The notes under the pieces were generated by a model. It saw only the letters and a program-made list of their open reading frames with translations, was not told the origin of the DNA and ran no database searches. Of a DNA stretch of 49,809 bases, positions 1 to 46,018 are shown piece after piece. Where the stretch lies: NCBI GenBank assembly GCA_964472425.1, contig CAYYLF010000002.1:1-49809 (forward strand). The letters run 5' to 3'. Both the position numbers and the translations under genes were made by a program. Within the stretch, counting starts at the first letter, position 1. The number at the start of each line of letters is the position of its first letter. The DNA is from an uncultured Muribaculaceae bacterium. GTDB taxonomy: Bacteria > Bacillota_I > Bacilli_A > RF39 > UBA660.

Positions 1-416
1 ATCCCGAGTTCCTTATGTTAGAAATACCAAATCCCACAAGATTTGTGATTGAGCCGATTTTTTGATGAAAAAAATTTTTATTACATCCTTAATTTATGCT
101 GGGAGTTATGTCAATATAGGAGACTATAGGCAAAGGAGTAAAGCCTTTAAAAAACACGTCATTTTGGATTTGGAAAATAGAAAAATATGTGGACAGAAGG
201 CTAGTCTTTTATGTACTCAAATTTAGGAAAAGAGCACTGAGTTTTTTGTCAGTGTATAGTTGCAAATGAAGTAATTTGAAAGATAATGTGGTATGATTTA
301 GGAAAGTAAAAGTTAGCACAGTAATTGCATAAGAGAACGAAGATACGACAAAATTAGAAAGAGTTCCCAATTACAATGGTAACTAGGTCAAACAAAAAAA
401 AGGAGAAAAGATATAT

Positions 417-1130
417 ATGAAAAAAAGAATGGTCAAGCTTGTTGTATGTATAATAACGATATTTAGTATAGGAATTAGTATTTATATCGGAAAATCAGAT
501 GATACAAAGGAGAACGTTTCTAGTACGGAAAATAATGCAATTTCGATGTACATAGAAAATGATAATGGTGAATACATGACAAACCAAAGCTCTTCCTTTC
601 CTACCGATGGATATATCCTAAACACGAACAAATCAGCATGTGAAAATGGGGGAATCATAACTCAAGATGAAACTACAAAAGCGTTGAGCGTTCGAACATC
701 GCGAACAGATAGTTGTAATTTCTATTTTGATGTAGAACCTAAGCTTTTAAATTTCGTCTACGATTTGACCGAGATCGGAGGACCTTCAATAGGGGATACA
801 TTTTACGATGATATAACCGTTTCTTCGGTAGAAAGTGCTGCAAACAATATCGAAAAGTACCATATAAAGGTAATAAATCAGGGAAGAGAAATAACAGAAA
901 AAACAGAATATGTTTCGGAAGATTTTACTAATCTTCCATATACAAAAAGTTTGAGAAACATTATTCCTTATAGTGTCTATGAAGTTTGCATAATAATCGA
1001 AATGTACTATATTGATAAAAATGGGCATCAATCCAATGTATACACTTTGCCGGAAAATTATAAAGAAGAATGTATTATAGATATAGGCGACCCTGATATT
1101 CCATTGGAGCCTGATATTCCATTGGAGTGA
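417..1130 (+). CDS. Anchored/secreted protein, short member of the paralog family (N-terminal module only)
   Basis: AGGAG at 401-405 upstream of the ATG. Hydrophobic anchor VKLVVCIITIFSIGISIYIG. AISMYIENDNGEY..DGYILNTNKSACENGG..TKALSV..SCNFYFDV aligns with the N-module of 7014..8261 and 21697..22953. The C-terminus is unrelated and ends in a PDIPLE-PDIPLE duplication. Confidence 0.6.
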   Translation: MKKRMVKLVVCIITIFSIGISIYIGKSDDTKENVSSTENNAISMYIENDNGEYMTNQSSSFPTDGYILNTNKSACENGGIITQDETTKALSVRTSRTDSCNFYFDVEPKLLNFVYDLTEIGGPSIGDTFYDDITVSSVESAANNIEKYHIKVINQGREITEKTEYVSEDFTNLPYTKSLRNIIPYSVYEVCIIIEMYYIDKNGHQSNVYTLPENYKEECIIDIGDPDIPLEPDIPLE

Positions 1131-6757: not shown

Positions 6758-6788
6758 CGGCACGATATTCGTGTCGTTTTTCTTTTTT
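6758..6788 (+). terminator. Rho-independent terminator after truB
   Basis: CGGCACGA-tat-TCGTGTCG hairpin followed by TTTTTCTTTTTT. Confidence 0.65.
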
Positions 6789-6852: not shown

Positions 6853-6883
6853 TTGACATCTTTCGGGGGGGGGGTGATAAAAT
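6853..6883 (+). promoter_or_regulatory. Promoter of paralog A with a G10 tract in the spacer
   Basis: TTGACA 6853-6858; G x10 6865-6874; TGA; TAAAAT 6878-6883. Spacer is 19 nt. Confidence 0.6.
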
Positions 6884-7013
6884 AGAAGCATAGAAGACTA
6901 AAGCAACCTCTTCGTCATAAGAAAAGGACACACGAGGAACTTATCAACAAAAAAATGTGAGGGCAGGAGGCCAGTCTTTTATGTACCCAAATTTTGGAAA
7001 GAGGAAAAAAGTG

Positions 7014-8261
7014 ATGAAGAAAAAATTGGTAATAATCTTATCTGTACTGGTAATATTTGGCTTTGGAATATATGTCGGTAGGGGACCGAGCAACCTCAAA
7101 AACATAACCAAAATACCATCCAGTTCGAGTAGTATGATTGCGATGTATATCCAAGACGAAGAAGGCAATTACAATTTGAGTAATGCACAAGAATTCCCGA
7201 AGGATGGATACGTACTCAATACCGAGAAGAGTAATTGCAAGAATGGTGGAGTGATAACTCAGAACGCCAGTACGAAGGCTTTGAGTTTGAAAGTCAAAAC
7301 GAGCGATGAATGCTCAGTATTCTTCGATGTTGAAACTCTCAAAGTTGGAGAAAGCGCAAGAACAATCTTAGCTAAAGCGAACGATGCAGGCATAACAACT
7401 TATAACAATGGAAACAAAAAAGAAATGTTCGTATTCGACCATCCGGAGGCAGAACAAACTACGGGCTGGACCGAAGAAGAAAGAAGAGACTACAGATACA
7501 TAGGAAATGAACCCAATAACTATATAACATTCAATGATGAAACCTGGAAAATTATAGGTGTATTTACTGTTGAGATAGAGAATGGTAATAAAGAGCAACT
7601 AATTAAAATAATAAGAAATGACTATATAGGAGTAGGTATGTGGAATAATCCTGCCTTCACAGGTATAAATGAATGGTCTTCGGCCTCATCACAAATTTTA
7701 TTAAATGAAGACTATTATAATCAAAGTGGAAGTTATACAAGTACAGCAAGTGTAAAAGGACTAAGTACTATAGCACGTGCCCAAATCGCGAAAGCAAAAT
7801 GGTATTTGGGTGGGCCGAATACGATGTCAAATTTAAATGGCTCAGACTATTATAATTTTGAGCGAAGCACGAGAACATGTATAACAGAAAATGTAACCGA
7901 ATGCAACAATCAAACAAGAACAACGAGTATAATGCAAAATGTAGGATTAATGTATCCTAGTGATTATTTATATACATTTTCGAACGGAGTAAACAACACT
8001 TGTTATTCCAACGGGCAAAATTGTCAAACTAGTAAAGGTGGAACCCCAAGTTTAAGTTGGTTATTTAAAGGTGATTATCAATGGACTCAAACTCCATATG
8101 CAGGTAATCATAATAGTGCAGTTTATATCTATAAAGACGGATATATTAGTTATGATTGCACTATAGGTAGATACTTTCGTCCTGCCCTCTATCTCAACTC
8201 TTCAGTCAAAATAACTGGTGGAGATGGCTCAGAAGGCAACCCTTACACCTTATCCGAATAA
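7014..8261 (+). CDS. Anchored/secreted surface protein, paralog A (N-module + C-module)
   Basis: GGAAAGAGGA RBS 8 nt before ATG 7014. Signal anchor KKLVIILSVLVIFGFGIYVG. C-module RDYRYIGNEPNNYITFNDETWKIIGVF...RPALYLNSSVKITGGDGSEGNPYTL is shared with 21697 and 35047. Cys-rich. Confidence 0.75.
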   Translation: MKKKLVIILSVLVIFGFGIYVGRGPSNLKNITKIPSSSSSMIAMYIQDEEGNYNLSNAQEFPKDGYVLNTEKSNCKNGGVITQNASTKALSLKVKTSDECSVFFDVETLKVGESARTILAKANDAGITTYNNGNKKEMFVFDHPEAEQTTGWTEEERRDYRYIGNEPNNYITFNDETWKIIGVFTVEIENGNKEQLIKIIRNDYIGVGMWNNPAFTGINEWSSASSQILLNEDYYNQSGSYTSTASVKGLSTIARAQIAKAKWYLGGPNTMSNLNGSDYYNFERSTRTCITENVTECNNQTRTTSIMQNVGLMYPSDYLYTFSNGVNNTCYSNGQNCQTSKGGTPSLSWLFKGDYQWTQTPYAGNHNSAVYIYKDGYISYDCTIGRYFRPALYLNSSVKITGGDGSEGNPYTLSE

Positions 8262-21533: not shown

Positions 21534-21563
21534 TTGACAAAATTCGGGGGGGGGTGCTACAAT
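21534..21563 (+). promoter_or_regulatory. Promoter of paralog B with a G9 tract in the spacer
   Basis: TTGACA 21534-21539; G x9 21546-21554; TGC; TACAAT 21558-21563. Spacer is 18 nt. The flanks are homologous to 6843-6900. Confidence 0.6.
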
Positions 21564-21696
21564 AGGACTATAGAAGACTGTAGTTTCTTTTAATTGCTTA
21601 AGAAAAACGAGCGATTAGAGTATTATCAACCGAAAAAATATGTGGGCAGGAAGCCAGCCTTTTATGTACCCAAAATATGGAAAGAGGAAAAAAGTT

Positions 21697-22953
21697 ATGA
21701 AGAAAAAATTGGTAATAATTTTATCTGTATTGGTAATATTTGGCTTTGGAATATATGTCGGTAGGGGAACGAACCAACTCAAAAACATAACTAAAATACC
21801 ATCCAGTTCAAGTAGCATGATTGCGATGTACATCCAAGACGAGGAAGGAAACTATCAACTGAGCGATGCTCGCGAATTTCCGAAAGATGGGTATGTTCTA
21901 AATACTGAGAAAAGCAGTTGTAAGAATGGGGGCAAGATAACTCAAAATGCTAGTACTAAGGCTTTGAGTTTAAAGGTTAAGACAAGTGACGAATGTACGG
22001 TGTATTTCGATGTAGTGACGAGCGCAAATCCAAGTGCAGATATGTTGATTGCTAAAGCAAATGACTCAAGTATAACGACATATGCAACAGGGAACAAAAA
22101 AGAGATGTTTATTTTCGACCATCCGGAGGCAACTCAGACGACTGGATGGACCGATGAAGAGAGAAGAGACTACAGGTACATAGGAAATGAACCTAATAAT
22201 TATATAACATTCAACGACGAGACATGGAGAATAATAGGAGTATTTACAGTAGAAACTGAAACAGGAGATAAAGAACAATTGATTAAAATAATTAGAAATG
22301 AGTCCATAGAAAACCTCCCATGGGACTCAACTCGAAATGAATGGTCAACGGCCCAACTGCAAAAATTTTTGAATGAAGATTACTACAATAATGAAAACAG
22401 TTTTAAATATAACTACATCAATCAATATGGAAATTCACAAACTATCACTATTTCAAAAGGTTTAACTAGTTTAAGTCAAAAACAAATAATGAAATCAAAG
22501 TGGTATTTAGGAAGTGCAAGCAATAATCAAAACGGACAAGAATTATATATTACTGAAAGAGGAACTAGAACCTGTGTAACAACAGAACAATGTAGCGGAG
22601 AAACAAGAACGACAAGTATAATACAAAACGTAGGCTTAATGTATCCCAGTGATTATATATTTACATATGCTTATGGTGTAGATACAAAATGTTATTCCAA
22701 TGGAACAAATTGTTGGACTTCAAGTGGCGGTAATCCAAATAGTAGTTGGTTACTACACAAAGAATATCAAAATACATTGTCACCGTTTGATTATAATAGT
22801 ATCAGCATACTAGTTGTCTATTCTACGGGTGGTACATTTGCTCTTAGCGGTAAAGACAATAGAACTACACGGCCCTCTCTATACCTTTCTTCTTCAGTAA
22901 GAATAACCGGCGGCGACGGAAGCCAATCTAATCCTTACACGCTCGCCAATTAA
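21697..22953 (+). CDS. Anchored/secreted surface protein, paralog B (N-module + C-module)
   Basis: Same RBS, signal anchor and modules as paralog A. Ends RPSLYLSSSVRITGGDGSQSNPYTL. Confidence 0.75.
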   Translation: MKKKLVIILSVLVIFGFGIYVGRGTNQLKNITKIPSSSSSMIAMYIQDEEGNYQLSDAREFPKDGYVLNTEKSSCKNGGKITQNASTKALSLKVKTSDECTVYFDVVTSANPSADMLIAKANDSSITTYATGNKKEMFIFDHPEATQTTGWTDEERRDYRYIGNEPNNYITFNDETWRIIGVFTVETETGDKEQLIKIIRNESIENLPWDSTRNEWSTAQLQKFLNEDYYNNENSFKYNYINQYGNSQTITISKGLTSLSQKQIMKSKWYLGSASNNQNGQELYITERGTRTCVTTEQCSGETRTTSIIQNVGLMYPSDYIFTYAYGVDTKCYSNGTNCWTSSGGNPNSSWLLHKEYQNTLSPFDYNSISILVVYSTGGTFALSGKDNRTTRPSLYLSSSVRITGGDGSQSNPYTLAN

Positions 22954-22985: not shown

Positions 22986-23085
22986 GGAAAAATGTGATAT
23001 TTCTGCCAAGTATATCTAGAATTTCGTGATAAAACTCGTTGAAATAGACGGAATTTTGTGATAAATGCTTGTAGAGGTGAATGAA

Positions 23086-24423
23086 ATGCCAAGACTTAGA
23101 AGAAAAATAGATGCATTTTTGCTAAGTTGGAAAAACGATGAAAACAGACTTCCGCTCGTAGTAAAAGGGGCAAGACAGATAGGAAAAACCGACGCCATCG
23201 AAAACTTTGCGGCCAACAACTACAAGTACCTTGTAGATATCAACTTCGTACTAGACAAACAATACAAAGGCATCTTTGACGATGGATACGACGTGGACAC
23301 GATTATCAGAAACATCTCTCTCATCAATCCCAGATTTGAATTCGTTCCAAAAGAAACGCTCATCTTTTTCGACGAAATACAAGATTGTGCAAACGCAGCT
23401 ACTTCTTTGAAATCGTTCAACATACATGGCCGTTATGACGTCATTTGTTCGGGCTCGCTTATGGGTATAAATTATAACGAAATCGAATCTAATGCTGTCG
23501 GAAACAAACGAAATTACGAAATGTATTCCCTTGACTTCGAAGAATTTCTCTGGGCCAAAGGTTATAAAGAAGAACAAATCGAAGACATGTATTCCTACAT
23601 GAAAGAATGCAAGCCACTTCCCCAAATTATGTACGACGTCATGCTCGACAATTCCCGAGAATACATGGTCGTTGGAGGGATGCCTGCCATAGTAAATAGA
23701 TTCGTAACTCAAAAGAACTATAGTGGTATACTCGAAATGCAAAATCAGATACTCCTAGACTACAAAGAAGACATCACCAAATACGCCCAAGGTCTAGACC
23801 AGACTCGCATACTGAATGTCTATAACAAAATACCAGTTTTCTTGGGAAACGAAAACAAAAAATTCCAAATATCGAAAGTCGAACACGGGGCGAGAACACG
23901 CGAGTACATAGGTACAATCGATTGGCTCGACCGCGCTGGAATAATAAACATCTGCCACTGTCTCGAACAACTAGAGCTTCCCCTCAAAGCAAACTACAAT
24001 CCGGACAATTATAGAATTTACTTTAGAGATACAGGTCTACTAATCGCGTCACTCGACGAAGAATCTCAAATGGATTTGAGAAACAACAAAAACTTCAACA
24101 CATATAAAGGAGCTCTATACGAAAATATAGTAGGGGACATGTTAGTCAAAGCCGGCTATTCGCTTTACTTCTACAAAAACGAAAAAGGCACAATCGAAAT
24201 GGACTTCTTCGTAAGGGACGCCGATTCGCTCATCCCAATCGAAGTCAAAGCGAACGACAACAGTACTCCGTCGCTCAATAACTTGATAAACTCGGATTCG
24301 TTCAAAGTCATCAAATACGGAATAAAACTGTGCAACAAGAACATCGGCTTCAATGGCAAATTCTACACCTTCCCGTACTTTCTGACCTTCCTATTGAAAA
24401 GATATCTAAAAGAGAAAAAATAA
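23086..24423 (+). CDS. AAA ATPase of the COG1373 / DUF4143 type, copy 1
   Basis: Walker A GARQIGKT, Walker B LIFFDEIQ. C-terminal ..YENIVGDMLVKAGYSLYFYK....EMDFFV....IPIEVK nuclease-like tail. AGAGGTGA RBS before ATG 23086. Confidence 0.8.
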   Translation: MPRLRRKIDAFLLSWKNDENRLPLVVKGARQIGKTDAIENFAANNYKYLVDINFVLDKQYKGIFDDGYDVDTIIRNISLINPRFEFVPKETLIFFDEIQDCANAATSLKSFNIHGRYDVICSGSLMGINYNEIESNAVGNKRNYEMYSLDFEEFLWAKGYKEEQIEDMYSYMKECKPLPQIMYDVMLDNSREYMVVGGMPAIVNRFVTQKNYSGILEMQNQILLDYKEDITKYAQGLDQTRILNVYNKIPVFLGNENKKFQISKVEHGARTREYIGTIDWLDRAGIINICHCLEQLELPLKANYNPDNYRIYFRDTGLLIASLDEESQMDLRNNKNFNTYKGALYENIVGDMLVKAGYSLYFYKNEKGTIEMDFFVRDADSLIPIEVKANDNSTPSLNNLINSDSFKVIKYGIKLCNKNIGFNGKFYTFPYFLTFLLKRYLKEKK

Positions 24424-24575: not shown

Positions 24576-25838
24576 ATGAAATACGTCAATAGAACTATGG
24601 AAAAAACACTAAAAAAATTTATAGGAAACTATCCTGTTATTTTAATCACTGGGCCACGTCAAGTAGGGAAAACGACACTTCTAAATTATTTATCCAGTAC
24701 TTCCAAGAAAAAAATAAACTATGTTACTTTAGATGACAAAATTGTAAGTGCTCAGGCAAGTGCCGATCCCGAGTTGTTTCTTAGAATGCACGAGACCCCT
24801 CTCGTAATAGACGAATTCCAGTATGCTCCAGAAATACTGTCGTATATCAAAATTCAAATCGACCAAGCGAGAAAAGATGCCATGTTCGGCAACAAAAAGG
24901 AAGTTGGCACACTTTATTATCTTACCGGTAGTCAGATTTTTGAAACGATGAAAGATGTGACAGAATCCTTAGCTGGAAGAATCGGAATACTGGATTTATA
25001 CGCCTTTTCGACGCGCGAACTCGAAAATTCTGAAGAAATACCTTTCGTACCAGATGTGCAAAAACTCAAAAAGAAAAAACAGGTTGATAGAGTATCCATT
25101 CCTAAATTATTCGAAAGAATACTGAAAGGAAGCTACCCAGAAATAAACTTTAACAAGAATATAAGTTTTGAAAATTATTTTAGGGATTACATTAGAACTT
25201 ACATAGAAAGAGATATAAGAAAGATAATAAACATCAAAGACGAAAACAAATTTATTCACTTCTTAACTTCAATTGCCGCCCGAACCGGACAAGAGTTTAT
25301 CGCTGAACACATAGGAAAAGAAATAGGAATAACGGGTAAAACTGTCGACGAGTGGCTATCGCTCCTCAAAAATACGGGTATAATTTACCTTTTAAAACCT
25401 TACTCGAATAACTTTGTCGCTCGTGCCATCAAAAGAGAAAAAATCTACTTTATGGACACAGGGCTTGCCTGCTATTTAACTGGCTACACCGACTCATCCA
25501 TCCTAGAAAAGAGTGCTTATAATGGCGCCATTTTCGAAACGTATATTATAAGCGAAATCGTCAAATCGTATGAAAATAATGGAATCGACCCCGACAGACA
25601 TCTATATTTTTATAGAGATAACCGCCAACAAGAAATCGATTTAATTGTAAACGACAATAATTTCCTTTATCCAGTCGAAATCAAAAAAAGCACCAATCCG
25701 AGTCGAGAAGCGACTAAAAATTTCGATGTTCTCAAAAATTCGGGGTACAATATAGGCAATGGAGTAGTGCTCTGCCTTTGTAAAGAAATCACGGCGATAG
25801 ACGACAACAACTATCGTGTTCCAATTGAATATATATAA
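24576..25838 (+). CDS. AAA ATPase of the COG1373 / DUF4143 type, copy 2
   Basis: Walker A GPRQVGKTT, Walker B LVIDEFQ. C-terminal ..FETYIISEIVKSY.......QEIDLIV......PVEIKKS. Confidence 0.8.
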   Translation: MKYVNRTMEKTLKKFIGNYPVILITGPRQVGKTTLLNYLSSTSKKKINYVTLDDKIVSAQASADPELFLRMHETPLVIDEFQYAPEILSYIKIQIDQARKDAMFGNKKEVGTLYYLTGSQIFETMKDVTESLAGRIGILDLYAFSTRELENSEEIPFVPDVQKLKKKKQVDRVSIPKLFERILKGSYPEINFNKNISFENYFRDYIRTYIERDIRKIINIKDENKFIHFLTSIAARTGQEFIAEHIGKEIGITGKTVDEWLSLLKNTGIIYLLKPYSNNFVARAIKREKIYFMDTGLACYLTGYTDSSILEKSAYNGAIFETYIISEIVKSYENNGIDPDRHLYFYRDNRQQEIDLIVNDNNFLYPVEIKKSTNPSREATKNFDVLKNSGYNIGNGVVLCLCKEITAIDDNNYRVPIEYI

Positions 25839-30404: not shown

Positions 30405-31883
30405 ATGGAGAAAACACAAATATTTGAGTCTATTGCTAAACGCGGTAATGGCGAAATCTACTTAGGAGTAGTAGGAGCAGTAAGAACTGGTAAATCGACC
30501 TTCATAAAACGATTTATCGAAAACCTCGTCGTTCCTAATATAAAAGACGAGTACGAAAAAAAACATTGCCTTGACGAGATACCACAAAGTGCTCAAGGCA
30601 AGACGATTATGACGACCGAACCCAAATTCGTTCCTTCCAATGGGGCGAGCATCGAAGTAGGTGAACTTACGGCCAATATCAAACTCATCGACTGTGTCGG
30701 ATACGTCATCCCTGGTGCATCCGGATACGACGACGAAATGGGGAACCCTCGCATGGTCAAAACGCCATGGACCCCGGAAGAAATTCCGTTTACTGAGGCT
30801 GCCGAAATCGGAACCGAAAAGGTCATCAAGGACCACGCGACCATCGGAATAGTCGTGACGACCGATGGTTCCTTCGGGGAAATTCCTCGAGCTGAATACA
30901 TAAACGCCGAAGAGCGAGTCATCATGGAACTCAAAACCCTCGGCAAACCTTTCATAGTCATCATGAACACGGTCCATCCGACCAATACCGAAACGGTCCG
31001 TTTGTCCGGCGAAATATCCGAAAAATACGACGTTCCAGTCCTTCCGGTAAGTGTCGAGACGATGAACGAACAAGACATCATGGAAATACTCAAAACAGCC
31101 CTCATGGAGTTCCCCGTTCTAGAAGTGAACGTGAGCATTCCAGACTGGATACACGTCCTCGACAACACCCACGAAATAAAAGCCGAATTCTTAAATAAAA
31201 TAAGAGAATCGGTCATGGAAGTCGATAAAATAAAAGACATCGAAGCCATCCTCGGCCACTTTAACGAGACTAAATACATATCTAAATCTTACATGAGCGA
31301 GTTGGATGCGAATATCGGAGTCGTCACTTTAAAACTCGAAGCCTCTCGAGACCTCTATCGCGAGACACTCAAATCGGTCATGGGTGACGTCTCCCTTTCG
31401 AAAGCTAGTATTCTAAAGATGTTCATCAACATGAGTTCAGGGGCAAGTGAGACATTACAAATCAAAGACGCGCTCAAAATGGCGCGCAGTACGGGATACG
31501 GCATCATGTATCCAGACTTGAAAGATATGAAGTTGGAGACGCCTGAGATAATCAAGCAAGGCAACAAATACGGCGTCAAACTGAAAGCGGTCGCCAGTTC
31601 TATTCACTTGATTAAGGTCGACGTCGAGAGCACCTTCGAACCGATAATCGGAAGCGAACTTCAAAGTAAAGAACTCATAAACTTCATCATGAAAGACTAC
31701 GAGACCGACCCATCGAGTATCTGGAAAAGCGAAATATTCGGCCGCAGTCTCGACGTCATAGTCAAAGAAGGAATCCAAGGAAAACTTTCCCTCATGCCGG
31801 AAACAACCCGTTACAAACTCGGTTCGACCATCACCAAAATCGTCAACAAAGGGGCCAACAACCTTATCGCCTTCGTACTTTAA
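30405..31883 (+). CDS. spoIVA: Stage IV sporulation protein A (spore coat morphogenetic ATPase)
   Basis: IFESIAKRGNGEIYLGVVGAVRTGKSTFIKRF Walker A, 492 aa, conserved C-terminus NNLIAFVL. hup lies downstream, as in Bacillus. Confidence 0.93.
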   Translation: MEKTQIFESIAKRGNGEIYLGVVGAVRTGKSTFIKRFIENLVVPNIKDEYEKKHCLDEIPQSAQGKTIMTTEPKFVPSNGASIEVGELTANIKLIDCVGYVIPGASGYDDEMGNPRMVKTPWTPEEIPFTEAAEIGTEKVIKDHATIGIVVTTDGSFGEIPRAEYINAEERVIMELKTLGKPFIVIMNTVHPTNTETVRLSGEISEKYDVPVLPVSVETMNEQDIMEILKTALMEFPVLEVNVSIPDWIHVLDNTHEIKAEFLNKIRESVMEVDKIKDIEAILGHFNETKYISKSYMSELDANIGVVTLKLEASRDLYRETLKSVMGDVSLSKASILKMFINMSSGASETLQIKDALKMARSTGYGIMYPDLKDMKLETPEIIKQGNKYGVKLKAVASSIHLIKVDVESTFEPIIGSELQSKELINFIMKDYETDPSSIWKSEIFGRSLDVIVKEGIQGKLSLMPETTRYKLGSTITKIVNKGANNLIAFVL

Positions 31884-32088: not shown

Positions 32089-32361
32089 ATGAACAAAGCT
32101 GATTTAATGGAAAAGGTCGCAGCAACAGTTGGTCTTTCTAAAGCCGACGCTGGTCGTGCACTAGACGCTGTACTAGAGGGAATCTCTGAAGGCCTTAAAA
32201 AAGAGGGAAAGGTCACTTTGGTCGGATTCGGAACTTTCGAAAGAAAGACTCGTGCCGCTAGAAATGGTATCAACCCATTGACTAAACAACCAATCTCAAT
32301 TCCTGAAAAGAATGTCGTTTCATTCAAAGCTGGAAGCAAGTTAAAAGATTCAGTAAACTAA
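32089..32361 (+). CDS. hup: DNA-binding protein HU
   Basis: MNKADLMEKVA...GFGTFE...ARNGINPLT...V.FKAG; AGGAGG RBS. Confidence 0.95.
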   Translation: MNKADLMEKVAATVGLSKADAGRALDAVLEGISEGLKKEGKVTLVGFGTFERKTRAARNGINPLTKQPISIPEKNVVSFKAGSKLKDSVN

Positions 32362-32380
32362 GTAGAATACGAGTATTTTA

Positions 32381-32404
32381 AAGACCAAACGATTTGGTCT
32401 TTTT
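32381..32404 (+). terminator. Terminator after hup
   Basis: AAGACCAAA-cga-TTTGGTCTT followed by TTT. Confidence 0.75.
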
Positions 32405-32456
32405 AATCGGCCAATTTTATGGTAAAATGATATAAGAATAGGTTAGGTGAAGAACC

Positions 32457-33347
32457 ATGAACAATGGGGAAGAAAAATTAAAAGAACAAAAAGCCGGCAA
32501 TCCGATATTCATACTCATCATATTTGCAGCCATCATCGGGTTCATTTTCTACGTTCCCGATATATATAAAAAGTACAATGCCGAATTTAGCAAATTCTTA
32601 GGTGGGGGCAACTCCAAAGAAGAAGACAAAGGACAAAAGGAAGACGACAAATCTCCGATAAGTGCCTACTACCAGTTGGGAAGTCGAAGTACCCTCAAAT
32701 TCAACGAGATAACCCTTACAGATATCTCCTTGAGTCCAGACAAGACGCTTACCTTCACGATAAACTCCGAAAACCAAATCGACCTCGACGAACTTTACTA
32801 CTATGCCGAATTCTACAAAGAAAGGAAGACCTTCGTTGGTCGCCGACTACTCCACGGAAAAGTTCCCAAAAAACTCACGCTAGAACTCGACCTTGCGAAC
32901 CTCGACGTCGATACGACCACCTACATGACCGTGAGTCTCATCACGGACGATGGCATCCAACCGATAGAAGATTCGGGCGACGAATCGGGGCTCACTTCGA
33001 TACGATGCACCAAAGGTACAGAAACGTTCGATTACGATTTCTATCTAAAGAAACTAGCCAAGACGACCTACAAGTACACCTACGAAAACGAAAACATGGA
33101 CGAACTCTCGCGCTCTCTACTCGAAGCTCAAAAGAAAGAAAAGGCCTATAACGAATACACCGGTGTCACAGCCCACATCACGGAAAACGACACCTCTTAC
33201 ATCTTCCTATCCGAATTTGACTACGCGAACGTGACGACATTCCAAAAACTGGGCGACCCTCGCATCTTCGACAAAAATACCCTAAACAGTGTCGTCAAAT
33301 TCAAGATGGACGCGGAAGGATTCGATTGCGATGAAAAACGCGTTTGA
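32457..33347 (+). CDS. Hypothetical membrane-anchored protein
   Basis: One TM (IFILIIFAAIIGFIFYV). Overlaps the scpA start. Confidence 0.5.
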   Translation: MNNGEEKLKEQKAGNPIFILIIFAAIIGFIFYVPDIYKKYNAEFSKFLGGGNSKEEDKGQKEDDKSPISAYYQLGSRSTLKFNEITLTDISLSPDKTLTFTINSENQIDLDELYYYAEFYKERKTFVGRRLLHGKVPKKLTLELDLANLDVDTTTYMTVSLITDDGIQPIEDSGDESGLTSIRCTKGTETFDYDFYLKKLAKTTYKYTYENENMDELSRSLLEAQKKEKAYNEYTGVTAHITENDTSYIFLSEFDYANVTTFQKLGDPRIFDKNTLNSVVKFKMDAEGFDCDEKRV

Positions 33348-34662: not shown

Positions 34663-34929
34663 TTACGACTTTTTCCTCGTAGAAGGTCTTTTCCTATCCT
34701 CAGCCCCATACATCATACTCACTGGCAGCCTATCCCTTTCATCCGTCCGATAGAGCAGATAATCTATGCTCGTATCGTAATAATCGGCCAACTTTTTGAG
34801 TATGTCCGTCGGTATATCATTAGTCTCAGTCTCGTATTGACTGTAACCTGTTTGAGACATATTTAATATTTTCGCAATTTCAGTCTGTGTTTTATCTACA
34901 TCTTCTCTTAACTCTTTTAATCTATTCAT
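34663..34929 (-). CDS. XRE-family helix-turn-helix transcriptional regulator
   Basis: RLKELREDVDKTQTEIAKILNMSQTGYSQYETETNDIPTDILKKLADYYDTSIDYLL. GGTGA RBS 8 nt before ATG 34929. Confidence 0.8.
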   Translation of the reverse strand: MNRLKELREDVDKTQTEIAKILNMSQTGYSQYETETNDIPTDILKKLADYYDTSIDYLLYRTDERDRLPVSMMYGAEDRKRPSTRKKS

Positions 34930-34956
34930 AATATTTATCACCGTATCAAATATAAT

Positions 34957-35029
34957 ATAACTTAAAATAAGTTATTGATTTTTATCACGAAATAAGTTAA
35001 AATATAATTGTGTAACCTAAAATAAGTTA
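34957..35029. promoter_or_regulatory. Operator-like repeats in the divergent XRE / paralog C intergenic region
   Basis: Inverted repeat ATAACTTA-aaa-TAAGTTAT (34957-34975) plus two further AAATAAGTTA copies (34990-34999, 35020-35029). TATAAT at 35003-35008. Confidence 0.45.
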
Positions 35030-35046
35030 GAAAAGAGGATGTATGT

Positions 35047-36597
35047 ATGAAATTAGAAACGAAGAGAATGATTTGCTTATTGATAGTAATCACGTCTATC
35101 ATCGCGATTGTAGGAACTGTATCTTTCGCGTACTTCACGTCGGTCGCCAATCCGGTTACGCAAGAGGCGAGCATATCGACGGGAACGACGAAGGTAACTT
35201 TTGCCGATGGAGACTTAGGGATGAGTGGTACTTTAAGTTTTGGTGATTCGGTTACAAAGAAGTTCACGATTACGAATACGGGTACGACTGTGGCAAGTGT
35301 GAAGTTATATTGGAAAGATTTAGTCAATACCTATACGACGGGAAGTCTCACTTATACTTTGAGTTATAGTGAAACGGAGAATGGGACATACAAAGAAGTA
35401 GTAGGGAAGAAGAATGTACCGAGCAGCAGTAGACTCCAAATGGCGACATTAGTCGATAAAGTGACTATTCCAGTTGGAGGAACATACTATTACAATTTGG
35501 TCATTACTTTAAATTACTTAGATGATGTAAATCAAGATGCCGATAAGATAGCGAGTCTATCTACATACTTCCAAGCAGAAGACTTACGTACAAATGTTAA
35601 ACCTACGAACGAGTTCGCAAACCTATTGCTCAGTAAAGCGAACGACGAAAATGTGACCGATTACAATTCGGGTAACAAACAAGAGATGTTCGTATTCGAC
35701 CATGAGATTACTAACTCGTACACGTATACAGAATATACTGAAGAAGGGGAAGAAGAAACATATACAGATACATGTACAGCAACCCAAATCGAAGATTGGA
35801 CAGATGAGGAAAGAAGAGATTATAGATACATAGGAAGTGAACCTAACAACTATATAACCTTCAATGACGAGACTTGGAGAATAATAGGAGTATTTACAGT
35901 CGAGACTGAGACAGGCGAAAAAGAGCAATTGGTCAAAATAGTTAGAGAAGAAAGTATAGGCAGTATAGATTTAGATCCTGAACAGCATGATACTCGTTAT
36001 TCTAGTCCCGGTTGGATAGGTACTGCAATGCAAATTATGCTAAACGGCGATTATTATAATAAAGAAAGTTTTACATACAAAAATGGTTCAAACGAAATAA
36101 CGATAAATGGTTTGAATTCTAAATCTCGTGGGCAAGTAGCCAAAGTAAAATGGTATTTAGGGAGTGAAAATTATGACGGTGGAATAACGGTGCATAACTA
36201 TTATTCTTCAGAAAGAGGAATAAAAGGGTGTATGTCTTTTTGTGACAAAAGAAAGGATGTATTTAATGTAGTACAAAATATTGGGTTTATATATGTGACC
36301 GACTATATGTTTACATACGCTGATGGAGTAAATGATAAATGTTACGACGATGGTAGATGTAATTCTGATAATGCAAAAGCAGGTTGGCTATATAATGGTG
36401 CATATCAATGGACTTTATCTCAATCGCTTAGTGGAATTACAATATTAGGAATTCGAGAAAGTGGAGCTATAATTCTTGCTTTCCCTGGCAATTTTACGGA
36501 GCTAACTTACAGTACTCGTCCATCTCTTTACCTCAATTCCTCTATCAAAATAATCGATGGGGACGGAAGTGCCGGAAATCCATACACGATAGGCTGA
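35047..36597 (+). CDS. Secreted protein, paralog C: SipW-type signal + TasA/camelysin-like module + family C-module
   Basis: AAGAGGA RBS. IVGTVSFAYFTSVANPV signal pattern. FGDSVTKKFTITNTGT. C-module RDYRYIGSEPNNYITFNDETWRIIGVFTVETE...RPSLYLNSSIKIIDGDGSAGNPYTI. Confidence 0.75.
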   Translation: MKLETKRMICLLIVITSIIAIVGTVSFAYFTSVANPVTQEASISTGTTKVTFADGDLGMSGTLSFGDSVTKKFTITNTGTTVASVKLYWKDLVNTYTTGSLTYTLSYSETENGTYKEVVGKKNVPSSSRLQMATLVDKVTIPVGGTYYYNLVITLNYLDDVNQDADKIASLSTYFQAEDLRTNVKPTNEFANLLLSKANDENVTDYNSGNKQEMFVFDHEITNSYTYTEYTEEGEEETYTDTCTATQIEDWTDEERRDYRYIGSEPNNYITFNDETWRIIGVFTVETETGEKEQLVKIVREESIGSIDLDPEQHDTRYSSPGWIGTAMQIMLNGDYYNKESFTYKNGSNEITINGLNSKSRGQVAKVKWYLGSENYDGGITVHNYYSSERGIKGCMSFCDKRKDVFNVVQNIGFIYVTDYMFTYADGVNDKCYDDGRCNSDNAKAGWLYNGAYQWTLSQSLSGITILGIRESGAIILAFPGNFTELTYSTRPSLYLNSSIKIIDGDGSAGNPYTIG

Positions 36598-36683
36598 TAA
36601 ATAAGGAATTTCTCAAAAATTATCACTTTTAGCAAAAAAGTTGACAAAAATCACAAAAAGTATGATATAATCTTCTTGTGATT

Positions 36684-36770
36684 GCCTCTGTGGCGGAATT
36701 GGTAGACGCGCTGGACTCAAAATCCAGTGGTAGCGATACCGTGCCGGTCCGAGTCCGGCCAGAGGCACCA
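36684..36770 (+). tRNA. tRNA-Leu (anticodon CAA), class II, CCA encoded
   Basis: Acceptor GCCTCTG/CAGAGGC. D-arm GCG-GAATTGGTAGA-CGC. Anticodon stem CTGGA/TCCAG with loop CTCAAAA. Long variable arm. T-arm GCCGG-TCCGAGT-CCGGC. Confidence 0.88.
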
Positions 36771-36782
36771 TTAATTGAAAAC

Positions 36783-40359: not shown

Positions 40360-40395
40360 CTTGCAACCATTTTATGATATAATCAACTTGTGCCT

Positions 40396-40482
40396 GTCCT
40401 TGTGGCGGAATTGGTAGACGCGTTGGTCTCAGAAGCCAATGATAGCAATATCGTGCCAGTTCAAATCTGGTCGGGGGCACCA
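40396..40482 (+). tRNA. tRNA-Leu (anticodon CAG), class II, CCA encoded
   Basis: D-arm identical to the CAA tRNA. Anticodon stem TTGGT/GCCAA with loop CTCAGAA. T-arm GCCAG-TTCAAAT-CTGGT. Acceptor GTCCTTG/CGGGGGC needs three G-U pairs. Confidence 0.75.
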
Positions 40483-40493
40483 TTATGTAATTT

Positions 40494-40613: not shown

Positions 40614-43600
40614 ATGAAGATATACTTGTACCTCAAAAACAAAATTTTGACCTTTGCACTTCCTCAAAAAGTTTCAGGAAACTTCAACTTCGACGAACAC
40701 TCGTACGAAGAATCCAAACTGATAAACATCGAAGCCATCGATTCCAAATGGTACTTATATTCGACGAGTGACGTAAACATCATCTCGAACGGAATGGTTC
40801 TCGCTCGTGTTGCTCTCGAAAAAGACCAATACTACTTCGTCAAGAGAGCAGGGGTAGACTACATGCTCTTCGCGACCGACGCCTTCGACGCGAGTTTCTT
40901 GCCGTACAAATACAGCCAAGACACGGCACTCACCATCGGAAACGACTCGTCTTGTAATATAAAATTCTCGTCTCCCTTCGTCAAAGGGGTCGCAGCCAGA
41001 ATAAGAATATCCGGCACGGACATAGGACTCGACACCTTAGAGACGACCGTCTATCTGAACAATGTCGCCCTCGAACCCAAGACGACGAACTATCCACTAA
41101 AAGGTGGGGACGAGTTGAACATCTATGGACTGAAACTCATGTTCCTAAATGGCTTTCTGCTTTTGAACAATCCTCACAACACGGTCACCTGCAACACGGC
41201 CAGTGCCAAACTGTCCTCGTACCAGCTCACCTATGGAAATGACCCGCAAGACCTCGAAATCAAAGATGCAGAACTCTACTCTAAAGACGACTACTTTTCG
41301 AAGTCCCCAAGAATAAGACGAACTATAAAGACCAAGGAGATAACCTTAAGCCCTCCACCTCGTCAAGACAAAGAGACCGAAATGCCACTTCTTTTGACGA
41401 TTGGACCTATGCTCACGATGGGGTGTGTTTCACTCATCATGTTTCTAAATACGCTAGGAAACATCTCGAACGGAAAAGCGACCCTCGCCCAATCTTGGCC
41501 GAGCCTCCTTTCTTCGATGGCCATGCTCGCCTCGACCCTTCTGTGGCCGACTCTCACGCGCATATTCAATAAGACACTCAAAGCCAAGAGAAAAAGAGAA
41601 CTCATTCGCAAATACACCCGTTACCTCGACACCAAAAGAGAAGAGCTTTCGAAAGAGCAAAAACTGCAACACGAAATACTTCTAGAAAATCTGATTCCAG
41701 TATCCGAATGTCTAAACATCATCCAAAGCGGAAAAGCTCGGTTCTGGGACAAGCGCATAGAACAGAGTGACTTCCTCGAAGTTCGCCTCGGCACGGGCAA
41801 AGAACACTTAGATGTCAAAATAAACTACCCGGAAGAGGGTTTCACCATCGACGAAGACGACCTTCGTAAACAAGCCGATGCTCTCGTCGAAGAATTCGCT
41901 TACTTGTACGATGTGCCAATAGGCTACTCGCTATACAAAAACAAGATAACCGCCCTCATGGGTGATGCGAACAAATGCAACGGAATGCTCCAAAACATCA
42001 TCCTTCAACTTCTGACCTTTTATAGCTACGAAGACATCAAAATAGTCGTCATCACGAACCCCTTGAACCAAGACAAATGGGAATACGTCCGTTACTTGAA
42101 TCACTCATTCTCGAACGACAAACAGATAAGATTCTTCTCTTCCGATGCCGAAGGAGCTAAGAGGATATGCGACTATCTGAACACCGAACTCACTTCGCGT
42201 ATCCAACTCGCTCAAGACGGGGCCAAATTCTTCAAACCGTACTATGTCATCTTCACCGACAACTACTCGCAAATCAAGCGGCACAATTTCACGAAGACGA
42301 TGACCGAATACGACGAAAATTTGGGCTTCAGTCTCGTCATTCAGGAAAGCCGAATGAGCAAACTTCCGAGCAAATGTAACAACTTCATAACCCTTAGTGG
42401 CTCGTCCGCGGACATCCTCAAAAACTCGTTCGAAGCCCAAGAAGCATCGAGTTTCCACGAAGAAATAAACGCGAGCATCGACATGATGGCCGTCGCCCGA
42501 AAAATCTCAAACATACCTATCGAATTCGAAGAAGGAACCAAACAACTGCCGGATTCCATAACCTTCTTGGAGATGGAAAGAGTAGGTAAAGTAGAACAAC
42601 TGAACATCATGAACCGTTGGGATACAAACGACTCGACGACGAGCCTCAAAGCGGAGATAGGTGTCGACGACGAAGGAAGCCCGATGTATTTGGACCTTCA
42701 CGAAAAATATCACGGGCCCCATGGACTTATCGCCGGCATGACCGGAAGTGGTAAATCCGAATTCATCATCACCTACATCCTATCGATGGCCATCAACTAC
42801 AGTCCCGACGACGTCGCCTTCATTCTCATCGATTATAAGGGTGGAGGACTCGCGGGAGCCTTCGAAAACAAGACGACCGGATTCGTCCTTCCACACCTCG
42901 CCGGAACGATTACCAACCTCGACAAAGCCGAGATGGACAGAACTCTCGTCAGCATAGACAGCGAAATAAAACGTCGTCAAAAGATATTCAACGAAGCCCG
43001 CGACCGCTTGGGCGAATCGACCATCGACATCTACAAATACCAGACCTTCTTCAAAGAAGGAAGATTAACTGAACCGGTCCCACATCTTTTCATAATATGC
43101 GACGAGTTCGCCGAGCTGAAAAGTCAACAACCGGAATTTATGGACAACTTGATAAGCGTAGCCCGCATAGGTCGAAGCCTCGGTGTTCACCTCATCTTGG
43201 CCACTCAAAAACCGAGTGGAGTGGTAAACGACCAAATTTGGTCCAACACCAAGTTCCGGGTCTGTTTGAAGGTTCAAGATGCCTCCGACAGTAAAGAAAT
43301 GCTCAAACGCCCGGAAGCCGCGAGCATCAAACAGACCGGTCGGTTCTACCTACAAGTCGGATACGACGAATACTTCGCACTCGGTCAATCGGCTTGGTGT
43401 GGTGCCAAATACTTCCCGAGCGAAAAAATCGTCAAACAAGTCGACAAGAGCATCAACTTCATAGACGACACGGGAAACGTCATCAAGAGCATCCAATCGG
43501 GCAACAACATCAAAATCGAAGCTCAAGGCGAACAACTCGCGGCCATCATGACCAACATAGTCGAGGTCGCGCGTACCTTCGGAAAGAAGACCAAAAGACT

Positions 43601-45194
43601 TTGGCTGAATGCCATCGACCCGATTATCTTGATAGACAACCTCGTCAAAAAATACGGCTTTGTCCGCACTCCGTACGACGTGAAAGCCATCATAGGTGAA
43701 TACGATGCGCCCGAAAAGCAAGAGCAAAACATCTTAATATACGACCTCGCCAAAGACGGCAATACGGTCATCTACGGAAACGACGAAATCGAAAGAGAAA
43801 AAGTTCTGAACGCGATTATCTACTCGATATGTACGGCCCACACGGCCAAAGAGATAAACATCTACTGCATCGACTACGGTTCGGAACAGCTGAGAATGTT
43901 CGGTCGTCTTCCTCAAATCGGTGGACTCGTCTACATGGGCGACGACGAAGGAATCAAAAACCTCTTCAAATTGATAGTCGAAGAGATTAAGTCGAGGAAG
44001 AAAAAACTCGTCCAATACGGCGGTTCACTCGAAAGTTACAACAAGAAAAACGAGGTTAAACTTCCTCAAATATTGTTCGTAATAAACAACTACGAAGGAC
44101 TCACCGAAATATACAATTCTATCTACGAGGACATCGCCTCTATCGGTCGCGACTGTGAAAGATACGGCATCACCCTCGTCCTCACGTGCAACACTCCATC
44201 GACCCTCGGTCGCCGCGTGGCTCAATGCTTCAACAACAAATATGCTCTCCATCTTTCGGACCCATCTGATTATTATGGCATATTCACTTTGAAATCGAAG
44301 ATAAGACCGCGAGACATTTTAGGACGGGGGCTCGTCTCGAACGACGGAGTACACGAATTTCAAACTGCTTCGATAGTGCCGCCGGAAACGAGTCTGAACG
44401 AATACGTCGAAAACCTCACCGAGCGTATAATCGAACTTGACACCTCGACTGCCAAACCGATTCCAGCCTTGCCTAAGAAGGTCACTTACGAAATCGTCGC
44501 GAACGAAATTTCAGACCTTTCCAAAGTGCCTATCGGCATAGCCAAAAATTCGCTCCGCGTGATAAAGTACGACTTCCGAGCTTTCCCGATGACGACCATC
44601 GCTTCGAACAAACTTTCGAACATCGACTCGTTCATGGATTCACTTCTCGAAGTATTGGTTCGCGTGAGCGAACTGACCGTCTTCTTTATCGATACGGTTG
44701 GAGTTCTGCCTGTCGCGGCAACTAAGGCAAATGGCAGCAAGAAGATAAACTATTTCGACACCGGATTCGACGAGATTCTCGAAAAGTTCACCTCGATTGA
44801 AAAGAGTTCAGAATACGACAAATACCAGATACTCTACATATTCTATGGCCTCGAAAAACTCAAGAGTAAAGCTGAAACTTCCAAAATTGAAGCTTTCTTT
44901 GGTGCCTTGAAGACGAGCGAACACAGTCATGCGATAATCGCGGACGGCTCTAAAAACCTCAAGTCTCTCGACATGGATATGTGGTATTCTAAAATCAAGA
45001 ACAACACAGACGGCATATGGATAGGTCGCGGCTTCTCCGACCAACAAAACTTCCGCATCAGCAAGATAACCAAAGAAATGTCCGAGCCGCTCGCCAACAA
45101 CTACGGCTTCTATCTAAACGAAAGCAATGCCGAACTCATGAAAGTTCTCGAATTCAACGATTTACTAAAAGAGGAGGATGAAGATGAAGAATAA
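40614..45194 (+). CDS. essC: Type VII secretion (T7SSb) FtsK/SpoIIIE-family ATPase EssC/YukB-like
   Basis: N-terminal tandem FHA-like region. Two TM helices (LLLTIGPMLTMGCVSLIMFL; LLSSMAMLASTLLWPTL). D1 Walker A GMTGSGKSE (42735-42758), Walker B LFIICDEFAEL, GVHLILATQKPSG. 1526 aa. Confidence 0.9.
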   Translation: MKIYLYLKNKILTFALPQKVSGNFNFDEHSYEESKLINIEAIDSKWYLYSTSDVNIISNGMVLARVALEKDQYYFVKRAGVDYMLFATDAFDASFLPYKYSQDTALTIGNDSSCNIKFSSPFVKGVAARIRISGTDIGLDTLETTVYLNNVALEPKTTNYPLKGGDELNIYGLKLMFLNGFLLLNNPHNTVTCNTASAKLSSYQLTYGNDPQDLEIKDAELYSKDDYFSKSPRIRRTIKTKEITLSPPPRQDKETEMPLLLTIGPMLTMGCVSLIMFLNTLGNISNGKATLAQSWPSLLSSMAMLASTLLWPTLTRIFNKTLKAKRKRELIRKYTRYLDTKREELSKEQKLQHEILLENLIPVSECLNIIQSGKARFWDKRIEQSDFLEVRLGTGKEHLDVKINYPEEGFTIDEDDLRKQADALVEEFAYLYDVPIGYSLYKNKITALMGDANKCNGMLQNIILQLLTFYSYEDIKIVVITNPLNQDKWEYVRYLNHSFSNDKQIRFFSSDAEGAKRICDYLNTELTSRIQLAQDGAKFFKPYYVIFTDNYSQIKRHNFTKTMTEYDENLGFSLVIQESRMSKLPSKCNNFITLSGSSADILKNSFEAQEASSFHEEINASIDMMAVARKISNIPIEFEEGTKQLPDSITFLEMERVGKVEQLNIMNRWDTNDSTTSLKAEIGVDDEGSPMYLDLHEKYHGPHGLIAGMTGSGKSEFIITYILSMAINYSPDDVAFILIDYKGGGLAGAFENKTTGFVLPHLAGTITNLDKAEMDRTLVSIDSEIKRRQKIFNEARDRLGESTIDIYKYQTFFKEGRLTEPVPHLFIICDEFAELKSQQPEFMDNLISVARIGRSLGVHLILATQKPSGVVNDQIWSNTKFRVCLKVQDASDSKEMLKRPEAASIKQTGRFYLQVGYDEYFALGQSAWCGAKYFPSEKIVKQVDKSINFIDDTGNVIKSIQSGNNIKIEAQGEQLAAIMTNIVEVARTFGKKTKRLWLNAIDPIILIDNLVKKYGFVRTPYDVKAIIGEYDAPEKQEQNILIYDLAKDGNTVIYGNDEIEREKVLNAIIYSICTAHTAKEINIYCIDYGSEQLRMFGRLPQIGGLVYMGDDEGIKNLFKLIVEEIKSRKKKLVQYGGSLESYNKKNEVKLPQILFVINNYEGLTEIYNSIYEDIASIGRDCERYGITLVLTCNTPSTLGRRVAQCFNNKYALHLSDPSDYYGIFTLKSKIRPRDILGRGLVSNDGVHEFQTASIVPPETSLNEYVENLTERIIELDTSTAKPIPALPKKVTYEIVANEISDLSKVPIGIAKNSLRVIKYDFRAFPMTTIASNKLSNIDSFMDSLLEVLVRVSELTVFFIDTVGVLPVAATKANGSKKINYFDTGFDEILEKFTSIEKSSEYDKYQILYIFYGLEKLKSKAETSKIEAFFGALKTSEHSHAIIADGSKNLKSLDMDMWYSKIKNNTDGIWIGRGFSDQQNFRISKITKEMSEPLANNYGFYLNESNAELMKVLEFNDLLKEEDEDEE

Positions 45195-45653: not shown

Positions 45654-46018
45654 ATGATTAAAAGAGAAATCGAGAAAAAACTTAAATCTATCTCCGATAC
45701 TAGACGAGTTTTGCTTATTACTGGAGCAAGACAAGTAGGGAAATCTACACTTGTAAAAAATATTCGAGAAACAGACCGTGTATATGTGACTTTAGATGAC
45801 TTATCTCTATGAGAGCTAACTCAAAACGGCCCTAAACTATGAAGGGAAAATTGATAATAGATGAGGTTCAGTATGCTCCAAAATTATTTTCCTATATAAA
45901 AATGGAAGTAGATAACTCTAAAGAAAAAGGTAAATTCTGGTTGACTAGCAATCAGTATGTTATGGGGATAAAAATGATAAAGAGAACTTGTCAAAAGTTC
46001 CCGTCGTGCCGAGCGTAG
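45654..46018 (+). pseudogene. Decayed COG1373/DUF4143 ATPase gene
   Basis: MIKREIEKKLKSISDTRRVLLITGARQVGKSTLVKN...YVTLDDLSL then TGA (45810). A second TGA at 45840. A frameshift, then KLIIDEVQYAPKLFSYIKMEVD..GKFWLTSNQ (Walker B region). The rest of the gene is missing. Confidence 0.75.

Follow-up and report, generated by a model that had tools for sequence, protein, structure and literature searches.

Candidate slipped-strand poly-G switches in promoters of a predicted surface protein family from uncultured spore-forming gut Bacilli

Results

The window (the whole 49,809-nt stretch of DNA analysed here) was found to be chromosomal, carrying nusA, infB, truB, relA, spoIVA, a gene for an FtsK/SpoIIIE-family ATPase and two tRNA-Leu genes. 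It had been assigned earlier to a spore-forming Firmicute, and this context was borne out by SpoIVA, which is encoded at 30405-31883. Two paralogous genes on the forward strand are the subject of this study. Gene A (7014..8261) encodes a predicted DUF6273-type extracellular protein of 415 amino acids that bears a membrane anchor or signal at its N-terminus, and gene B (21697..22953) encodes its paralog of 418 amino acids. The two proteins are 64% identical, and an N-terminal hydrophobic anchor is present in both. Gene A is isolated from upstream transcription by the intrinsic terminator of truB (assigned by Pfam), which lies at 6758..6786 on the forward strand and consists of a stem-loop (6758-6776) and a T run. 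The upstream neighbour of gene B is a flippase-like gene that is divergently transcribed. With a terminator before the one and a divergent neighbour before the other, each gene needs its own promoter.

Directly 3' of gene B we observed two tandem AAA_14/DUF4143 ATPase genes (23065-24423 and 24576-25838), and 76% similar segments (repeats D7 and D9) were seen in a third region at about 45700-45912. The tRNA-Leu genes (CAA and CAG) lie in 113-nt repeats of 80% similarity (36661-36773 and 40373-40485), which bracket about 3.6 kb including one gene of the DHH family and another that is HipA-like. TTGACA-19-TATAAT with a TGn precedes the first tRNA gene. The FtsK/SpoIIIE-family ATPase (1526 amino acids, 40614-45194) is of a size and type that suggest an EssC-like secretion ATPase.

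The DNA upstream of gene A was read directly, and a perfect -35 hexamer, TTGACA, was seen at 6853..6858 on the forward strand, with the A/T-rich stretch aaaatttttc directly 5' of it. It is followed by the segment tctttc (6859-6864), a G10 homopolymer (6865..6874, the proposed slippage site) and an extended -10 (6875..6883) made up of TGA (6875-6877) and TAAAAT (6878-6883), so that the spacer (6859-6877) is 19 nt long. The same order was found on the forward strand upstream of gene B, with TTGACA at 21534..21539, aaattc at 21540-21545, a G9 homopolymer at 21546..21554 and an extended -10 at 21555..21563 (TGC at 21555-21557, TACAAT at 21558-21563); here the spacer (21540-21557) is 18 nt. The TGn extended -10 is common to both promoters. 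The original prediction had described these elements at gene A, and their recurrence at 21534-21563 with a different tract length. On direct reading the hexamers, the TGn and the 19- and 18-nt spacers proved exact to the base, and the two tracts did differ in length (G9 versus G10).

When tracts of at least 7 nt between recognisable hexamers were considered, the two sites read TTGACA/G10/TGATAAAAT (A) and TTGACA/G9/TGCTACAAT (B). In each case the poly-G promoter was the only strong sigma-A match upstream of the gene. No further promoter match of 9/12 or better was found upstream of gene A, and a weak 9/12 match was found upstream of gene B at 21598-21626. Promoters scoring at least 11/12 with a TG numbered five in the window as against 0.17 in shuffles, and the remaining good sigma-A-like promoters of the window had spacers of 16-17.

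The leaders between promoter and ribosome-binding site are about 125 nt long and contain a conserved element of about 55 nt. It lies on the forward strand at 6946..7000 in gene A, just 5' of the ribosome-binding site AGAGGA (7000-7005), and at 21629..21683 in gene B. Its core, CTTTTATGTACCCAAAT, is common to genes A and B and to the ORF at 417-1130, and a similar core, TATGTACCAAAT, was observed in the leader of a tract-less paralog from a related MAG (L233, about 1950-1990). The leaders of A and B folded no better than shuffles (z = -0.3 and -0.9), and a riboswitch or known RNA in the leader was ruled out using Rfam, where the two tRNA-Leu genes were the sole matches in the window. A metagenome scan with a 33-nt leader motif gave 0 matches. 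The element might be bound by a protein or mark a point of mRNA processing.

We also found a degenerate third copy of the promoter and leader at 60..230 on the forward strand, with the leader element at 176-230 and the letters gctGGGAGtt (GGGAG at 101-105) at the tract position. As it has gctGGGAG in place of the tract and no -35 at a usable distance, this copy is probably decayed or locked. The 237-residue gene downstream of it (417..1130, forward strand) is a relative that shares the N-terminal module only, its first 107 residues being 42% identical to the N-terminus of A.

Another DUF6273-type paralog in the window, of 516 amino acids (34663-35046 and 35047-36597), has a SipW/camelysin-like N-terminus and no G tract. 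The gene next to it is divergent and of the HTH_3 (XRE-type) kind, and the intergenic region is occupied by three copies of the repeat AAATAAGTTA. At L229 (1171-1500) a homolog also has an HTH_3 neighbour, and there the palindrome TGTCTTAAAATAAGACA fills a 17-nt TTGACA/TATAAT spacer. An XRE-type regulator and an operator-like repeat preceded some other family members as well. These neighbours, repeats and palindrome suggest that some members of the family are repressor-controlled rather than tract-controlled.

We further examined what the proteins might be. Neither A nor B gave a Pfam match to PF19789 (DUF6273) at E <= 0.01, and precomputed PF19789 matches were present for homologs at 37-60% identity to A/B. 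An AlphaFold (AF2) model of protein A (pLDDT 84) was searched against the PDB, and the sole significant match was 9qa6 (E 9e-7), the IgA peptidase of Thomasclavelia ramosa. The N-terminal domain of this peptidase is annotated as DUF6273, and the enzyme is secreted and predicted to be anchored to the cell wall via a C-terminal SPXTG sortase motif (PMC12402451). Proteins A and B may thus be called DUF6273-type by homology and modelled fold, not by the Pfam threshold. Many of their homologs carry a prepilin N-methyl signal (PF07963); the G-F-T-L-x-E prepilin motif is absent from the N-termini of A and B, which both begin MKKKLVIILSVLVIFGFGIYVG. The hydrophobic anchor of A and B and the several relatives per MAG make this a predicted surface or secreted multigene family.

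The two tracts were the only G or C runs of at least 6 nt in the 49,809-nt window. From base composition about 7 runs of at least 6 and 0.07 of at least 9 would be expected. The probability of two or more runs of at least 9 is about 0.002 from composition, with sites A and B being paralogous and hence non-independent observations. Since about 7 runs of at least 6 were expected and these two were the only ones, G/C runs appear to be generally avoided and to be kept in these spacers. The flanks of the two sites have diverged (51% identity upstream and 74% downstream), and both tracts are uninterrupted.

A homolog of A (P0029, 45% identical) was found in the MAG CANSHI, which comes from a fairly close relative of the window's organism (81% identity in SpoIVA and 84% in HU). 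Its promoter (locus L005) reads TTTTTCTTGACA-attctc-G10-TGT-TAAAAT, and the 39 nt from there to the ATG hold no other feature. This promoter matches the window in the hexamers, the N6, the TGn and the TTTTTC 5' of the -35, while the other flanks are unalignable; at this level of flank identity (47%), G10 is found in both. An uninterrupted tract kept across such divergence appears to indicate selection for mutability. The relative's paralogs P0032 and P0086 had no tract within the retrieved DNA. In CANSHI the promoter and its family gene lie between hup and a gene for a 293-residue protein (L230, 1399-2847), and the window has neither at the corresponding position (32361-32457). The chromosomal location of promoter-gene units therefore differs between related genomes. 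The promoter was also the sole non-coding stretch shared by L230 and the window.

These observations bear on whether the real promoters might lie elsewhere, for example in the 130-nt leader, with the TTGACA/TAnAAT pair unused. The length of the leader, its conserved 55-nt element and the weak match before gene B would leave room for this. However, there is no second match of comparable score upstream of gene A, the short interval at L005 holds no other candidate, and it is the promoter alone that L230 and the window have in common outside coding DNA. We consider a promoter elsewhere to be highly improbable.

Tract length was then compared between assemblies. Exact-protein look-ups for A, B and the close homologs P0005, P0006 and P0011 gave no match, and nothing identical or near-identical to the two window loci was found in the collections. 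For P0029, the tract was G10 in SRR15510232 and SRR31301523 and G12 in ERZ14425207, with an identical protein and 2 substitutions in the remaining 2.2 kb between the G10 and G12 assemblies. SRR15510232 had been assembled by two pipelines, and both gave G10. The contig with G12 has a coverage of 4.6x, at which homopolymer lengths are easily miscalled, and we take this one case as no more than suggestive. The orthologous promoters L029 and L031 had G7 and G8, respectively, with flanks 98-98.7% identical. Thus, as would be supposed for a slipping tract, lengths in related genomes and metagenomes vary while the flanks stay constant (G10/G12 and G7/G8), these being homologous promoters and not the window loci themselves.

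Error-prone homopolymer calling and the thinly covered G12 contig also raise the question of whether the tracts are a sequencing or assembly artefact, such as poly-G from two-colour Illumina chemistry. We give this next to no weight. The tracts are internal to contigs, with unique flanks and at the same promoter position, and two paralogs, dozens of independent MAGs and at least 120 metagenome contigs from different studies and assemblers all have them. The agreement of two pipelines on one sample also argues against it.

The wider family was scanned in one genome per GTDB species, with 80 loci (397 kb) retained. We found 438 relatives, whose hosts are uncultured gut Bacilli, Erysipelotrichaceae or 'Tenericutes' MAGs; a single genome often had many of them. 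The 80 loci contained 21 runs of G7-G11. Every run was intergenic, had its G's on the family gene's sense strand and lay 30-330 nt 5' of an ORF with a hydrophobic N-terminus; C runs of at least 7 nt were absent from these 397 kb. An uninterrupted G7-G11 run was present within 400 nt upstream of 17/72 family genes (24%), as compared to 2/141 other ORFs (1.4%), an enrichment with a Fisher p of 2e-7. Not all lineages use poly-G tracts, since none was found in CAZKKM, the closest GTDB genome (49-57% identity, about ten paralogs). Interrupted tracts were seen in L076 (GGGGAGGGGG) and L012 (GGGGGAGGGG), and these, together with the gctGGGAG copy in the window, are apparently locked versions.

Among family promoters with recognisable hexamers, the consensus spacers were 18-22, and none was 17. 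The tract lay cleanly between perfect hexamers in the window and in L005, L013, L048 and L066. About two-thirds of the family tracts were not within a clear -35/-10 spacer, and spacing may therefore not be their sole mode of action.

Two further arrangements were observed. In eight loci (L029, L031, L034, L037, L039, L043, L073 and L080) the G7-G11 run comes after a conserved GTTTACAA-NN-TGTTACCT or TTTACA-N10 motif. What follows the run is either a weak TAnnnT, directly adjoining it, or no recognisable -10 at all, and in these loci the tract may act otherwise than by spacer length. In L023 (143-151), L025 (205-213), L027 (175-183) and L012 (2225), G9 is followed by tattatata-CCCC-TCTTTTTTT, with L012 having the interrupted form GGGGGAGGGG. 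From its letters, the G9/CCCC pair could form a short G/C hairpin with a U tail, resembling a terminator or attenuator, the stem of which would be tract-dependent.

We also scanned metagenome contigs with the pattern CTTGACA-N6-G(7 or more)-N0-4-TGnTAnAAT. The pattern matched at least 120 contigs/loci, which formed at least 80 clusters after dereplication. The sources among the matches listed were human gut, termite gut and sediments, with a GC content of 25 to 66%. The modal tract lengths of clusters among the matches listed were G7 in 14, G8 in 10, G9 in 22, G10 in 29 and G11 in 5. Chance would predict a steep fall from G7 (the pattern allows five configurations for G7 and one for G11), so the peak at G9-G10 points to a selected class. 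Where the leader was 80 nt or less, 27 of 41 clusters among the matches listed had an ORF with a lipobox, a signal/TM or a prepilin N-terminus; two DUF6273-type family members were among the matches listed. One promoter, at 133-164 of L095 (PDWI01088924.1, GC 26%), reads CTTGACAAAATTC-G10-TGCTAAAAT and is nearly identical to promoter B, whose N6 and TGC it shares. It lies on an unrelated low-GC contig before an ORF that does not look secreted, and the likeness would be due either to convergence or to promoter-module transfer.

In viral contigs the strict pattern was found with G in 6 cases and with C in 0. A relaxed pattern gave 15 with G9 and 7 with C9, and these C9 versions rule out an absolute polarity of G over C as a general rule; on these counts, the preference for sense-strand G appears to be real but not absolute. 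Within the gene family the G is always on the sense strand, and this may point to a constraint beyond simple spacing.

A phase-variable tract may also act by a mode other than spacing, for instance by altering how the open complex forms, by displacing the site of a regulator or through the 5'-end of the transcript. Many of the relatives' tracts abut a TAnnnT or have no recognisable -10 downstream (e.g., TTTACA-N10-11-Gn), all 23 of 23 family tracts carry G and none C on the sense strand, the strict design in viral contigs is likewise G in all six, and a tprL case with poly-G abutting the -10 and the transcription start is discussed in PMC7864442. On the other hand, the tracts of the window and of L005, L013, L048 and L066 sit cleanly between perfect hexamers, the polarity breaks down under the relaxed pattern, and within the family it may simply reflect common descent. 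For the tracts of A and B we regard such a mode as having only a small chance of being correct.

Tract length was polymorphic in 6 of the 17 multi-sample clusters, and not in the other 11, among the matches listed. The polymorphic near-identical pairs among the matches listed were G11/G10 (99.3% flank identity), G10/G9 (95%) and G8/G7 (100%). In one ortholog group among the matches listed the tract was G10 in 10/10 samples, and some tracts thus look stable at the level of the assembly consensus.

Such stability would fit a G run that is a fixed promoter element, setting spacer geometry or strength or making the promoter constitutively weak, with no meaningful switching. Several other groups among the matches listed were also invariant, the consensus spacers of the family cluster at 18-22 with no scatter about 17, and the TGn motif could carry the promoter alone. 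Against this, it is the homopolymer nature alone that is conserved, and not the N6 or the flanks, and sequences that are otherwise nearly identical differ in tract length. Nor would the run have to be uninterrupted if the element were fixed, and the window is otherwise free of G/C runs of at least 6. A perfect TTGACA at 19-22 bp from the -10 would also be puzzling unless shorter alleles are visited. We think a fixed element unlikely, though less so than the other alternatives.

Discussion

We conclude that the tracts of promoters A and B are probably (at about 70%) a slipped-strand contingency switch acting via the -35/-10 spacing. The reading of the G10 tract as a slipped-strand phase switch, with which the analysis began, has become a well-supported candidate through the length polymorphism and the family enrichment seen at homologous promoters. 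By replication slippage (slipped-strand mispairing) the G run would gain or lose one base, and this would alter the distance from the perfect -35 to the extended -10. The altered spacing would switch transcription of the surface gene between strong, weak and off states in a manner that is heritable and reversible. If the optimal spacing is 17 bp, G8 would be the strongest allele of either promoter. Among the assembled alleles, gene A (G10, spacer 19) is predicted to be weak or off, and gene B (G9, spacer 18) intermediate. The paralogs A and B, and probably further members of the family encoded in the same genome, would each switch on their own, so that cells of one population would differ in their surface proteins.

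The slippage mechanism, the ON length, the transcription start and the biological pay-off are what we infer here, and escape from IgA or phage as the pay-off is a guess. The TGn extended -10 can lower dependence on the -35 spacing, and the effect of a single G could be modest. Since the spacers of the family are 18-22 and never 17, the promoters are either OFF most of the time or have an optimum other than 17 when the spacer contains a G tract. For the window we considered and ruled out reiterative transcription and a poly-G within the transcript, as the tract is upstream of the -10 and the truB terminator blocks read-through. A G-quadruplex was ruled out on general knowledge, since an intramolecular quadruplex takes more than one G run.

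If the switch is real, uncultured spore-forming gut Bacilli vary a surface-protein family stochastically. This family has a fold in common with the T. ramosa IgA peptidase, and its variation would bear on coating by IgA, on susceptibility to phages and on the persistence of strains. The promoter motif would also give a simple signature for finding candidate phase-variable genes in metagenomes. The breadth of the poly-G promoter class in metagenomes is the most interesting by-product of this study. We only tentatively suggest, and hold it somewhat doubtful, that promoters A and B exemplify a broad class, undescribed in the open-access literature, of 'contingency promoters' with a poly-G tract (TTGACA - few nt - G9-11 - TGnTAnAAT). 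Many uncultured gut and environmental bacteria with sigma-A-type promoters, including spore-forming Bacillota, would use it to switch surface genes of the lipoprotein, pilin and DUF6273 types stochastically.

The random on/off flipping of surface genes via promoter homopolymers is a known bacterial strategy, and simple-repeat phase variation is textbook knowledge for a few pathogens (Neisseria, Haemophilus, Campylobacter, Treponema and Mycoplasma). To our knowledge, there is little record of it in commensal gut Bacillota, for which most published work concerns invertible promoters. Our searches of the open-access literature yielded no account of promoter switching by poly-G in this family, in uncultured gut Bacilli or in spore-forming Bacillota.

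The vlp system of Mycoplasma hyorhinis is a surface multigene family in which each gene has its own spacer homopolymer and switches independently. Like vlp, the genes described here belong to a surface multigene family of a Bacilli-related, host-associated lineage with a homopolymer in the -35/-10 spacer. The vlp tract, however, is a poly-A of about 17-20 nt and its products are lipoproteins with repetitive C-termini, whereas here the tract is a poly-G of 9-10 nt and the predicted products are globular and DUF6273-type. In Bordetella pertussis fim2/fim3, a promoter-region poly-C controls the expression of fimbrial subunits via spacing, setting the distance between the BvgA activator site and the -10; unlike in fim2/fim3, no activator site is evident here.

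A possible further parallel is Bifidobacterium breve, in which a G-tract replication-slippage ON/OFF switch is reported to act on sortase-pilus gene clusters (PMC9187656); the resemblance to the present case lies in the G tract, the Gram-positive gut commensal and the surface structure. In Treponema pallidum, poly-G tracts of 7-12 lie upstream of paralogous surface proteins (tp0126 and tprE/G/J/L) and vary within isolates (PMC7864442). The tp0126 tract lies between the -35 and the -10, with an optimum at a spacing of 17, and in a tprL GFP reporter G8 was active and G10 near background (PMC7864442). The poly-G tracts described here are likewise upstream of paralogous predicted surface-protein genes. 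T. pallidum differs in being a spirochaete with outer-membrane proteins, in that the tprL tract abuts the -10 and the transcription start and is not in the spacer, and in that its tract variation was measured directly, while here it is deduced from assemblies.

In Neisseria meningitidis porA, a sense-strand poly-G lies between the -35 and the -10, and its length sets the spacing and the expression of the surface protein (PMC7864442). The promoters of A and B resemble porA in having a homopolymeric sense-strand G run inside a sigma-70-type spacer. The porA case concerns a Gram-negative proteobacterium and a single porin gene, whereas here the organism is a spore-forming Bacillota with at least two paralogs per genome. 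Unlike porA, the promoters described here have an extended -10 and are predicted to drive genes of an unrelated (DUF6273-type) protein family. Together, these comparisons indicate that the proposed mechanism is one already known from systems of the porA and tp0126 type, and that, as far as the open-access literature shows, the lineage and the gene family would be new for it.
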